The position numbers were made by a program, and so were the translations under genes. Below are positions 475 through 44,452 of a stretch of 64,000 bases of DNA, piece by piece (the first letter of the stretch is position 1; every line of letters starts with the position of its first letter). The notes beneath the pieces were generated by a model that did no database searches, was not told the DNA's origin, and saw only the letters and a program-made list of their open reading frames with translations. Where the stretch lies: the NCBI RefSeq assembly GCF_002854065.1, contig NZ_CP024147.1; one strand, written 5' to 3'. The DNA comes from Escherichia coli. GTDB lineage: Bacteria > Pseudomonadota > Gammaproteobacteria > Enterobacterales > Enterobacteriaceae.

Positions 475-737
475 CCTGCTCAAACCAACGTTAATAGCCA
501 TCCTAAAATAGACGAAGCGCCAGCCAATTCCCGCAGCGCGTCTAGCGTCATCAGGATTATAAGTACCCAAATAAACGGATTCATTTTGCTGTGTGTCATT
601 TATTACTGATGCGCAGTTATTCTACCGCTTTGTAAGTAGTAAAATAGTTAACCCGATCAAGACTACTATTATTGGTAGCTAAATTTCCCTTAAGTCACAA
701 TACGTTATTATCAATGCTGTAATTTATTCAGCGTTTG

Positions 738-751
738 TACATATCGTTACA
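738..751 (+). promoter_or_regulatory. RstA-box-like motif TACATATCGTTACA about 100 bp upstream of asr
   Basis: Matches the TACAtntnGTTACA motif as I recall it for RstA; asr is a reported RstAB/PhoBR target. Functional binding is inferred, not shown. Confidence 0.4.
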
Positions 752-854
752 CGCTGAAACCAACCACTCACGGAAGTCTGCCATTCCCAGGGATATAGTT
801 ATTTCAACGGCCCCGCAGTGGGGTTAAATGAAAAAACAAATTGAGGGTATGACA

Positions 855-1163
855 ATGAAAAAAGTATTAGCTCTGGTTGTTGCCGCTGCTATGGGTCTGT
901 CTTCTGCCGCCTTTGCTGCAGAGACTGCGACCACACCTGCTCCGACTGCGACGACCACCAAAGCAGCGCCGGCGAAAACTACACATCATAAAAAACAGCA
1001 TAAAGCAGCACCTGCCCAGAAAGCGCAGGCGGCTAAAAAGCATCATAAAAATACGAAAGCTGAACAGAAAGCCCCTGAACAAAAAGCGCAGGCAGCGAAG
1101 AAACACGCCGGGAAACACAGCCATCAGCAACCGGCAAAACCTGCTGCACAACCCGCAGCGTAA
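855..1163 (+). CDS. asr: Acid shock protein (periplasmic, low-complexity Ala/Lys/His/Gln-rich)
   Basis: ORF-track frame 828..1163; start moved to the ATG at 855 (MKKVLALVV signal peptide, GAGGG ribosome-binding site upstream), giving 102 aa. Characteristic repeated [16 protein letters not shown] segments. Confidence 0.9.
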
Positions 1164-1255
1164 GTTTTCAACAGTAATGCTGGCGCGCCCCCTCGCGCCT
1201 GAAAATTACGGTGCTAAGCGGGTAACGTTTAGCACCGTCTTTAGCGGAGGGTAGT

Positions 1256-1339
1256 ATGGTGGGCCGTTATCGCTTTGAGTTCATTCTTATCATCCTTATT
1301 TTATGCGCACTGATTGCCGCTCGTTTTTATCTTTCCTGA
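1256..1339 (+). CDS. ydgU: Small hydrophobic protein, 27 aa (MVGRYRFEFILIILILCALIAARFYLS)
   Basis: Hand-translated ATG..TGA; below ORF-track size cutoff; position between asr and ydgD matches the known small-protein gene. Confidence 0.6.
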   Translation: MVGRYRFEFILIILILCALIAARFYLS

Positions 1340-11509: not shown

Positions 11510-11637
11510 CTTTTTACCTTAACACTTCCATAACAAGTCATCAGTAGAATACCTGATGAAAACTTGTTTAGAAACGATTGATAGTAAGTAAAAACAGCGC
11601 GGTGTATTGTGACGTTTTTATATCTACCGTGAATGTT

Positions 11638-12357
11638 ATGAACACTATCGTATTTGTGGAAGATGATGCGGAAGTCGGTTCACTGATTGCCGCGTACCTG
11701 GCAAAACATGATATGCAGGTTACCGTAGAGCCGCGCGGCGACCAGGCCGAAGAAACCATTTTGCGAGAAAATCCGGATTTGGTGTTACTCGACATCATGC
11801 TACCAGGCAAGGACGGCATGACCATTTGTCGTGATTTACGCGCAAAGTGGTCCGGACCGATTGTTCTTCTAACCTCTCTCGATAGCGATATGAACCACAT
11901 CCTGGCACTGGAAATGGGTGCCTGCGACTATATTCTCAAAACGACGCCCCCTGCTGTTTTGTTAGCGCGTTTACGTTTGCATTTGCGTCAGAATGAGCAA
12001 GCCACACTGACCAAAGGTCTTCAGGAAACGTCTCTGACTCCCTACAAAGCCCTGCATTTCGGCACGTTGACCATCGATCCCATCAACCGCGTAGTCACCC
12101 TGGCTAACACTGAAATCTCGCTCTCGACAGCTGATTTCGAATTATTGTGGGAATTAGCTACCCATGCCGGGCAAATCATGGACCGCGATGCATTGCTGAA
12201 AAATTTACGCGGCGTCAGTTATGACGGACTGGATCGTAGCGTGGACGTGGCTATTTCGCGGTTAAGAAAAAAACTGCTCGATAACGCCGCAGAACCTTAT
12301 CGCATTAAAACTGTGCGTAACAAAGGCTATCTTTTTGCGCCTCATGCATGGGAATAA
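11638..12357 (+). CDS. rstA: Two-component response regulator (OmpR family)
   Basis: ORF-track frame 11578..12357; start moved to the ATG at 11638 (MNTIVFVEDD), giving 239 aa with receiver and winged-helix domains. Confidence 0.9.
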   Translation: MNTIVFVEDDAEVGSLIAAYLAKHDMQVTVEPRGDQAEETILRENPDLVLLDIMLPGKDGMTICRDLRAKWSGPIVLLTSLDSDMNHILALEMGACDYILKTTPPAVLLARLRLHLRQNEQATLTKGLQETSLTPYKALHFGTLTIDPINRVVTLANTEISLSTADFELLWELATHAGQIMDRDALLKNLRGVSYDGLDRSVDVAISRLRKKLLDNAAEPYRIKTVRNKGYLFAPHAWE

Positions 12358-12360
12358 GCG

Positions 12361-13662
12361 ATGAAAAAACTGTTTATCCAGTTTTACCTGTTATTGTTTG
12401 TCTGCTTCCTTGTGATGTCTCTGCTGGTTGGGCTGGTGTACAAATTTACCGCCGAACGCGCGGGCAAACAGTCGCTGGATGATTTGATGAACAGTTCGCT
12501 GTATCTGATGCGCAGCGAATTGCGTGAGATCCCCCCACACGACTGGGGTAAGACGCTGAAAGAGATGGATTTAAATCTCTCTTTCGATCTGCGTGTCGAG
12601 CCACTGAGTAAATACCATCTTGATGATATTTCCATGCACCGACTGCGTGGCGGCGAAATTGTCGCCCTGGACGATCAGTACACGTTTTTGCAGCGTATCC
12701 CGCGCAGCCACTACGTGCTGGCAGTTGGTCCTGTTCCTTATCTTTATTATCTCCATCAGATGCGATTGCTGGATATCGCCCTGATCGCTTTTATTGCTAT
12801 TTCCCTCGCCTTTCCGGTGTTTATCTGGATGCGTCCGCACTGGCAGGATATGTTAAAACTGGAAGCAGCGGCGCAACGATTTGGCGATGGGCATCTCAAT
12901 GAACGTATCCACTTTGATGAGGGTTCGAGCTTTGAACGACTTGGTATCGCATTTAACCAGATGGCGGACAATATCAACGCCTTGATTGCCAGCAAAAAAC
13001 AGCTTATTGACGGTATCGCTCACGAACTGCGAACACCGTTAGTGCGCCTGCGTTATCGACTGGAGATGAGCGATAACCTGAGCGCCGCCGAATCCCAGGC
13101 GTTGAATCGTGATATCAGTCAACTTGAAGCTTTAATTGAAGAGCTGCTGACTTATGCCCGACTCGATCGCCCACAAAACGAGCTTCATCTTAGCGAACCA
13201 GACCTGCCGTTGTGGCTATCAACGCATCTGGCAGATATTCAGGCAGTAACGCCCGATAAAACGGTACGGATAAAAACGCTCATGCAAGGCCATTATGCGG
13301 CGTTGGATATGCGCTTAATGGAGCGCGTGCTGGATAATTTGCTCAATAACGCCCTGCGCTACTGCCATTCAACGGTTGAAACCAGCCTGCTACTGTCGGG
13401 GAATAGAGCGACATTAATTGTTGAGGATGATGGCCCAGGGATTGCCCCAGAAAACCGCGAACATATCTTTGAACCTTTTGTTCGCCTCGATCCCAGCCGG
13501 GATCGCTCAACCGGCGGCTGCGGGCTGGGGCTGGCAATTGTCCACTCTATAGCACTGGCAATGGGCGGTACGGTTAATTGTGACACCAGCGAACTGGGTG
13601 GTGCCCGCTTCTCGTTTAGCTGGCCGTTATGGCATAACATCCCGCAATTTACCTCTGCTTGA
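12361..13662 (+). CDS. rstB: Two-component sensor histidine kinase
   Basis: 433 aa; two transmembrane segments, HAMP, H-box (HELRTP) and ATPase motifs; immediately downstream of rstA. Confidence 0.9.
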   Translation: MKKLFIQFYLLLFVCFLVMSLLVGLVYKFTAERAGKQSLDDLMNSSLYLMRSELREIPPHDWGKTLKEMDLNLSFDLRVEPLSKYHLDDISMHRLRGGEIVALDDQYTFLQRIPRSHYVLAVGPVPYLYYLHQMRLLDIALIAFIAISLAFPVFIWMRPHWQDMLKLEAAAQRFGDGHLNERIHFDEGSSFERLGIAFNQMADNINALIASKKQLIDGIAHELRTPLVRLRYRLEMSDNLSAAESQALNRDISQLEALIEELLTYARLDRPQNELHLSEPDLPLWLSTHLADIQAVTPDKTVRIKTLMQGHYAALDMRLMERVLDNLLNNALRYCHSTVETSLLLSGNRATLIVEDDGPGIAPENREHIFEPFVRLDPSRDRSTGGCGLGLAIVHSIALAMGGTVNCDTSELGGARFSFSWPLWHNIPQFTSA

Positions 13663-42365: not shown

Positions 42366-42949
42366 ATTGATAACCTTTCTTTATCCTCTTTTAAAACATC
42401 TTTTTAACGTCAATGATGCCATTGCTTAGCGTTATCATCAGGTAATCCGTTTGCGAATAACCAAAAATGCAGGTTAATTGTTTTTTTAATAGCGAAATTT
42501 TCTATTCATTCGTGATCAAGATCACGATGCTGTGGCAATGTAAAAACATTGCAAGAATCAGGTTAAAATCATTTAAATTTACATACGCAACAAATATTGA
42601 CCTACAAAACATTACACTGGCTATTTTTCAGAAACTGGACTATCTCACTAGGAAAAACGCTAAATAGCAGAACATATCGCCGTCAAGCCATCATCCCCCT
42701 CTCAATGCAGTGAAAAAATCTGCCGTTACGTTTTTTGAAAAATTTAACGCTGGATAACATTTCCCGGAATGGTTGAATTCCCCGCCTCAGTTATATGTAA
42801 CAGATTATTACAAAGGACTTGTCTGAAAGTGCAAGATAGTGAACATTACCTGCCGTTTCCCCTCCCACTATAACAATTGCGCGTATGTTTTTTAGACATA
42901 ACGCGAGAAAGCACCCCCGTTAATATGGGATGTAAAAAAAGAGGTAAAA

Positions 42950-44452
42950 GTGTCCACTGCAAACCAAAAACCAACTGAAAGCGTCAGTTTGAACGCTTTC
43001 AAACAACCGAAGGCGTTCTATCTCATTTTCTCGATTGAGTTATGGGAACGTTTTGGTTATTACGGCCTACAAGGAATTATGGCTGTTTACCTGGTTAAAC
43101 AACTGGGTATGTCTGAAGCGGATTCAATCACCCTTTTCTCTTCCTTTAGTGCCCTGGTTTATGGTCTGGTCGCTATCGGCGGCTGGTTAGGTGACAAGGT
43201 ACTGGGTACTAAACGCGTAATTATGCTTGGCGCTATTGTGCTGGCGATTGGTTATGCTCTGGTTGCCTGGTCTGGTCACGACGCCGGTATCGTTTATATG
43301 GGTATGGCGGCTATTGCGGTCGGTAACGGCCTGTTTAAGGCTAACCCGTCTTCTCTGCTTTCTACATGCTATGAGAAAAACGACCCGCGTCTGGACGGTG
43401 CATTCACCATGTACTACATGTCCGTCAACATCGGCTCTTTCTTCTCTATGATTGCTACGCCGTGGCTGGCCGCGAAATACGGCTGGAGCGTTGCGTTTGC
43501 ATTGAGCGTTGTAGGCCTGCTGATCACTATCGTTAACTTCGCCTTCTGCCAACGCTGGGTTAAACAGTACGGTTCAAAACCAGACTTCGAGCCTATCAAC
43601 TACCGTAACCTGCTGCTGACCATTATTGGTGTTGTGGCACTGATCGCTATCGCCACCTGGCTGCTGCACAATCAGGAAGTTGCGCGTATGGCGCTGGGCG
43701 TTGTTGCCTTTGGTATCGTGGTTATCTTCGGTAAAGAAGCCTTCGCGATGAAAGGTGCTGCGCGTCGTAAAATGATCGTTGCCTTCATCCTGATGCTCGA
43801 AGCCATTATCTTCTTCGTGCTGTACAGCCAGATGCCAACGTCACTGAACTTCTTTGCGATTCGTAACGTTGAACACACCATTCTGGGCCTGGCCGTAGAA
43901 CCTGAGCAGTATCAGGCACTGAACCCGTTCTGGATCATCATTGGTAGCCCGATTCTGGCCGCTATCTATAACAAGATGGGCGATACTCTGCCGATGCCAA
44001 CTAAGTTTGCAATCGGTATGGTGATGTGTTCTGGTGCGTTCCTGATTCTGCCGCTGGGTGCAAAATTCGCGTCTGACGCAGGTATCGTGTCTGTAAGCTG
44101 GCTGGTCGCAAGCTATGGCCTGCAGAGTATCGGGGAACTGATGATCTCTGGTCTGGGTCTGGCAATGGTTGCACAACTCGTTCCGCAGCGTCTGATGGGC
44201 TTCATTATGGGTAGCTGGTTCCTGACCACTGCCGGTGCAAACCTGATTGGTGGTTATGTTGCGGGTATGATGGCTGTGCCGGATAACGTTACCGATCCGC
44301 TGATGTCACTGGAAGTCTATGGTCGCGTATTCTTGCAGATTGGTGTCGCTACTGCCGTTATTGCAGTACTGATGCTGTTTACCGCGCCGAAACTGCACCG
44401 CATGACGCAGGATGACGCTGCTGACAAAGCGGCGAAAGCTGCTGTAGCGTAA
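42950..44452 (+). CDS. dtpA: Proton-dependent di/tripeptide permease (POT family)
   Basis: 500 aa beginning [10 protein letters not shown] from a GTG start with AAGAGG ribosome-binding site; POT-family motifs and about 14 transmembrane segments. Confidence 0.95.

Follow-up and report, generated by a model that had tools for sequence, protein, structure and literature searches.

Gene content and promoter map of the asr locus

The stretch of Escherichia coli DNA analysed here, 64 kb in length and referred to throughout as the window, carries the ynfM-asr-ydgU-ydgD...rstA-rstB-tus region of E. coli in its first 16 kb. Positions 430–1440 were 100 % identical to strain CUWW06. Of 5426 complete E. 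coli genomes, 5422 contain this segment. The window and the CUWW06 record differed at three positions in the first 16000 bases, none of them close to asr. The identity of asr (855..1163, + strand, 102 aa) was given by RefSeq annotation of the identical sequence and by two family models, the Asr equivalog NF033636 (99.2 bits, cut-off 50) and PF06392 (46.3 bits, cut-off 24.9). Downstream on the same strand is ydgU (1256..1339), for which both RefSeq annotation and model NF052476 small_YdgU (70.3 bits) indicated a 27-aa membrane peptide; the gene has been renamed samT and forms one operon with asr (PMC13425233). Further along, rstA (11638..12357, +) encodes the response regulator RstA according to RefSeq annotation and the RstA equivalog NF007977 (485 bits), and rstB (12361..13662, +) encodes a sensor kinase according to the annotation of a near-identical record. 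The start of rstA lies 10.5 kb beyond the end of asr, the distance given for rstAB in a preliminary description of this DNA made from the sequence alone.

An in-frame ATG at 828, 27 nt 5′ of the asr start, was considered as an alternative start giving a 111-aa form of Asr, a form that carries no RefSeq annotation. This ATG was found in only 20 of 117 homologous loci, and 855 was therefore taken as the real start. Searching positions 400–1500 of the window against Rfam at E ≤ 1 gave no matches. Between ynfM and asr, on the minus strand, a 39-aa hydrophobic ORF (480–599) matched NF033695, ‘KPN_01571 family protein’, at 63 bits; the RefSeq annotation of this ORF varies in length, at 105 or 120 nt. 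Ahead of rstA, some 55–70 bp before its start, TTGTTTAGAAACGATTGATAG at 11565–11585 (+) resembles a PhoP box (TGTTTA-N5-xxTTxA), which is consistent with the known control of rstA by PhoP.

The promoter was mapped by comparison with a characterized one. Window positions 726–854 were identical to the published 129-bp MG1655 asr promoter, and coordinates were transferred using that sequence and the wild-type N9 spacer TCCCAGGGA, both from the supplement to PMC9026648. That study places an RstA box at −77..−55 and a PhoB box at −39..−22, followed by a 9-bp spacer and the −10 element (PMC9026648); it served here as a second-hand source for the footprint limits and the +1, in place of the primary footprint and start-site papers. 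On the plus strand of the window, the published RstA region falls at 729..751 and the PhoB box CTCACGGAAGTCTGCCAT at 767..784, where it overlaps the −35 position. The spacer then occupies 785..793 (−21..−13), and directly 3′ of it lies the −10 hexamer TATAGT at 794..799 (−12..−7). The exact transcription start would be at 806 by the same numbering, given that the PhoB box ends at −22, that N9 covers −21..−13 and that the wild type has A at −17 and −13. A Shine-Dalgarno sequence for the ATG at 855, GAGGG at 843..847 (+), was read from the sequence and is the ‘native SD’ of the published construct.

A generic sigma70 scan of positions 430–1450 found no complete promoter, a result that fits control by an activator without bearing on it further. 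No good −35 hexamer accompanies the −10.

The RstA box and its regulator

The RstA box TACATATCGTTACA lies at 738..751 (+), corresponding to −68..−55 with its centre at −61.5, and consists of two TACA half-sites 10 bp apart. It matched all 12 of the 12 specified positions of the published RstA box TACATNTNGTTACA, a consensus quoted from the genomic SELEX of Ogasawara et al. 2007 (PMC4117788, PMC6824119), and E. coli asr is described as having the canonical TACA repeat (PMC4117788). The preliminary description had proposed this motif from a consensus; that consensus agrees with the published one and the match is exact. It was also the only exact match to TACATNTNGTTACA on both strands of the 64 kb window, where shuffled sequence gave a mean of 0.01 such matches and one in only 1 of 100 shuffles. 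Looser matches, with at most two mismatches, were at chance level across the window (5 found, 3.8 expected), and the other matches of this kind were dropped. Measured to the asr ATG, the distance is 117 bp from the first base of the box and 103 bp from its last, in agreement with the value of about 100 bp first put forward.

Comparison with the published footprints placed the 14-mer at the 3′ end of the RstA region (−77..−55), with the PhoB box separate from it and nearer to the −10 element. Since the published RstA region contains the motif and the PhoB box lies elsewhere, the footprint data leave the proposed assignment of the motif to RstA standing.

Conservation of the promoter was assessed within E. 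coli and across species. The 32-nt stretch containing the RstA box occurred once each in 5406 of the 5426 complete E. coli genomes, at 99 % identity or higher in 5405. For the wider comparison, one genome per species was scanned with a degenerate Asr signal-peptide pattern, which targets the coding sequence and not the promoter, and 120 asr loci were recovered. These came from some 20 or more genera, including Escherichia, Salmonella, Citrobacter, Enterobacter, Klebsiella, Raoultella, Kluyvera and Kosakonia as well as Cedecea, Serratia, Rahnella, Ewingella and Hafnia. An RstA box matching at least 10 of the 12 positions and starting 117–122 nt before the asr ATG was present in every one of the 117 Enterobacterales loci whose upstream sequence extended to 200 nt or more. 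The distance from the start of the box to the −10 element was exactly 56 bp in 85 of these 117 loci, the hexamer being TATAGT in 84 and the variant TAAAGT in one.

When 118 unique upstream regions were aligned, the mean information content came to 1.74 bits over the 12 box positions vs 0.08 bits in the flank at 700–734. Within the box, TAC and GTTAC were invariant or nearly so across species, and the T at consensus position 7 was weak (0.30 bits). The phylogenetic consensus is thus closer to TGTACAT-N3-GTTACA, and the consensus adopted at the outset, although as published, is not upheld across species at position 7.

The asr promoter is a textbook direct target of RstA and is in use as an acid-inducible promoter in strain engineering. 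RstA retards the asr promoter in EMSA and no longer binds when the box is deleted or scrambled (PMC11135836); the shift has also been reported in EHEC (PMC6824119). Purified RstA binds Pasr in DRaCALA and, on its own, activates transcription by sigma70 holoenzyme in vitro, and acid induction of a Pasr fusion requires RstBA and is lost in rstA mutants (PMC13425233). These assays used the asr promoter from other E. coli strains, and the MG1655 promoter sequence is that of the window.

The main competing regulator is PhoB, which could be the principal activator of asr through the Pho-box-like site over the −35 position, leaving the RstA 14-mer incidental. Control of asr by phoBR is in the literature, as is the PhoB box at −39..−22 (PMC9026648), but RstA binding requires the 14-mer (PMC11135836), and the in vitro activation by RstA alone and the loss of acid induction in rstA mutants (PMC13425233) also weigh against an incidental role.

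The sequence of the PhoB site itself bears on both sides of the question. A Pho box is made of two direct repeats of 7 bp that resemble CTGTCAT, have a period of 11 bp and stand in place of the −35 element. Against the Pho-box consensus, positions 767–784 matched 12 of 18 positions, which favours a role for PhoB. The orthologous asr promoters, however, mostly scored 7–9 of 18, with about 5 expected at random, and conservation was confined to the 5′ half of the site (1.76 bits, vs 0.34 bits for the 3′ half at 776–784), whereas the RstA box was found in every locus examined. On this evidence we consider a PhoB-driven promoter with an incidental RstA motif very improbable. As the RstA and PhoB sites do not overlap, PhoB input would add to RstA control and not replace it.

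Conservation across Enterobacterales covers the RstA box and its distance from the −10 element but not the full Pho box. This argues that RstA control would be the ancestral input to asr, with PhoB acting as a weaker or lineage-specific input.

A related regulator such as OmpR could instead be the main user of the box, the match to the RstA consensus then reflecting a general site of the OmpR family. RstA and OmpR do act on csgD through one DNA motif (PMC13425233), and the TACA-N6-TACA core of the asr box also occurs upstream of dtpA in the window. Presumably dtpA (tppB) is itself OmpR-regulated. At asr, however, it is RstA that has been tested, in EMSA with mutated boxes, in DRaCALA, by transcription in vitro and through rstA deletions, and no report of OmpR acting at asr was found in the RstA and asr literature examined. 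Principal use of the box by OmpR accordingly seems even less probable to us than principal activation by PhoB, and RstA is retained as the regulator of the box.

The core upstream of dtpA was one of three TACA-N6-TACA matches in the window, where about one was expected. It lies within TACAAAACATTACA at 42603–42616 (+), between nth and dtpA and 334 bp ahead of dtpA, which starts at 42950, and is a perfect match to the core. It may represent an OmpR site, an RstA site or a chance occurrence, and no literature was found that treats tppB, OmpR and RstA together.

Asr composition and alternative open frames

Asr comprises a signal peptide (codons 1–21, 855–917), with its boundary presumably at codon 21, and a mature part of 81 aa that is repetitive and basic. 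The mature residues are of just 10 types; A, K, T, Q, P and H account for 93 % of the 81. The coding strand of asr contains 13.6 % T vs 24.9 % for the window, and the coding region carries imperfect direct repeats of 36 and 30 nt. Across the recovered loci, Asr was between about 69 and about 160 aa long, depending on the number of QKAQAAKKH-type repeat units, and several species (among Rahnella, Raoultella, Cedecea, Ewingella and some Enterobacter) had two asr copies per genome.

Two further long ORFs overlap asr: one on the same strand in the +1 frame (877..1254, 125 aa), and one on the opposite strand in register with the asr codons (867..1151, −, 94 aa). Their presence had been noted in the preliminary description and attributed to composition. 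Leu, Ile, Val, Met and Phe are absent downstream of codon 20, so that no asr codon there has T at its second position and the +1 frame has no way of containing TAA, TAG or TGA. A stop in the antisense frame requires the sense codon TTA, CTA or TCA, and asr has one such codon, the TTA at codon 5. The frames stay open because mature Asr lacks the residues whose codons could produce stops in them. The compositional bias originally invoked is real, but the operative feature is the absence of codons with T at position 2, of Leu codons and of TCA Ser codons, and not richness in Ala, Lys, Gln and His as such.

The long lengths of the two ORFs (125 and 94 aa), and the persistence of the antisense frame, which was open in 99 of 113 unique homologues, could be taken as signs that one or both are real overlapping genes. 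However, the Asr protein sequence is by itself enough to predict both: when codons were resampled synonymously with the protein held fixed, open runs at least as long as those observed arose in 41 % of cases for the +1 frame (P = 0.41) and 49 % for the antisense frame (P = 0.49). Long antisense frames of this type are also found opposite ordinary E. coli genes, as 20 % of the 103-codon segments taken from long open frames of the window reached the observed length in the codon-aligned antisense frame.

Among the homologues, the +1 frame was broken in 107 of 113 and open in only 6, and it breaks in nearly all of those with at least two Val-type codons in the mature part. The openness of the antisense frame in 99 homologues is in line with a neutral expectation of about 98 of 113, calculated from Ser codon counts and a TCA usage of 12 %. 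Neither frame, therefore, is kept open more often among the 113 homologues than expected neutrally.

Pfam and NCBIfam gave no match to either ORF at E ≤ 0.01, and neither is annotated in the three RefSeq records that were inspected. Each begins at a TTG, with no obvious Shine-Dalgarno sequence ahead of it. A coding role for one or both of these frames has, in our judgement, next to no probability, and is the least credible of the alternatives weighed here. Both ORFs are compositional artefacts and not genes, as the codon argument, the simulation and the cross-species comparison agree, and the codon argument shows why two long ORFs over asr should stay unannotated.

Further conserved elements, regulatory model and known systems

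Conservation of the promoter extends beyond the RstA 14-mer. Immediately downstream of it, between the box and the −35 region, the block CGCTGAAACCAACCACTCACGGAAG at 752..776 (+, −54..−30) had a mean information content of 1.67 bits across 118 Enterobacterales asr promoters vs 1.74 bits for the RstA box. Only the 3′ part of this block overlaps the published PhoB box, and in many species TACC occurs exactly 10 bp 3′ of the second TACA. This 25-bp block, as conserved as the box itself, is a counterpoint to the simple model below, as one RstA dimer leaves it unexplained. It could be an operator for further RstA protomers or for another regulator.

A second conserved element, GGCCCCGCAGUGGGGUU at 809..825 (+, +4..+20), is predicted to fold into a stem-loop at the 5′ end of the mRNA (−9 kcal/mol). 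It was nearly invariant across Enterobacterales (1.83 bits), and its rare variants alter the loop and keep the stem. The folding energy was not unusual (z −0.2), so that it is the conservation alone that is noteworthy. The predicted hairpin may stabilise the 5′ end of the asr mRNA. Neither the block nor the stem-loop was mentioned in the asr promoter literature examined. Taken together, the suggestion that the block is an undescribed operator and the stem-loop an element for mRNA stability or translation is a tentative one, drawn from conservation in the alignment, and we hold it with rather low confidence.

The spacer between asr and ydgU (1164..1255, +) also appears structured, the fold predicted for 1155–1262 having an energy of −44.5 kcal/mol and a z of −2.87. 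The prediction includes a long hairpin at about 1208–1238 followed by CUUU, and a CCCCCUC segment (about 1188–1194) can pair with the ydgU Shine-Dalgarno sequence GGAGGG (about 1246–1251). Such a structure could lead to partial termination or to control of samT translation.

The model best supported by the map and the published work is as follows. RstA, a regulator of the OmpR/PhoB family, would bind as a dimer to the two direct TACA half-sites, head to tail, its gene lying 10.5 kb downstream. From −61.5 it would help sigma70 RNA polymerase at a promoter that has a good −10 (TATAGT) and lacks a usable −35. From the position of the box, we infer a class-I-like mechanism via the alpha subunit of the polymerase. 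The action of RstA at the promoter would turn asr on at acid pH; PhoQP would raise rstA expression, and the weaker PhoB site at −39..−22 would add a phosphate input.

The resulting transcript, beginning at about 806, would encode first Asr, a secreted, repetitive, basic and disordered periplasmic protein, and then the 27-aa SamT, which would feed back on RstB. SamT has been reported to inhibit RstB, constituting a negative feedback, and Asr to affect the system positively (PMC13425233).

Overall, we conclude with high confidence that 738–751 is the RstA operator already known from the E. coli asr-ydgU (samT) promoter and that the additional ORFs over asr are not genes. The identification of the box is correct but ordinary, all of it being already known. 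As a discovery it matters little, and the value of the check lies in the confirmed consensus, in an exact coordinate map of the asr promoter in the window and in the codon argument against annotating the two ORFs.

The closest known system is the RstA box of E. coli K-12 asr (Ogasawara et al. 2007, J Bacteriol 189:4791, as cited in PMC4117788, PMC9026648 and PMC13425233), with which the present site shares promoter sequence, position, gene and a nearby regulator. There is no difference in the promoter between the two, although the strain here is not K-12. The RstA boxes of csgD and of Klebsiella pneumoniae asr (PMC4117788) likewise consist of direct half-sites in tandem with a 10-bp spacing, to which an RstA dimer binds in acid-responsive activation. 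The K. pneumoniae asr box, TACA/TACT, has been crystallized with the RstA DNA-binding domain (PMC4117788); its second half-site is imperfect, whereas in E. coli asr both half-sites are perfect TACA. A further difference is that the csgD motif is shared with OmpR.

The PhoB site resembles the Pho boxes of PhoB-dependent promoters in being an 18-bp site in the −35 position, 9–10 bp upstream of the −10 element. It differs from typical Pho boxes in matching only 12 of 18 positions and in having a 3′ half that is unconserved among orthologues, and it is separate from the RstA 14-mer. The alternative frames over asr, finally, belong with the long ‘shadow’ ORFs of compositionally biased genes and share their cause, the codon repertoire of the real frame being unable to yield stops elsewhere. 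Compared with the usual shadow ORFs, asr is extreme, as +1 stops are strictly impossible over its whole mature region.
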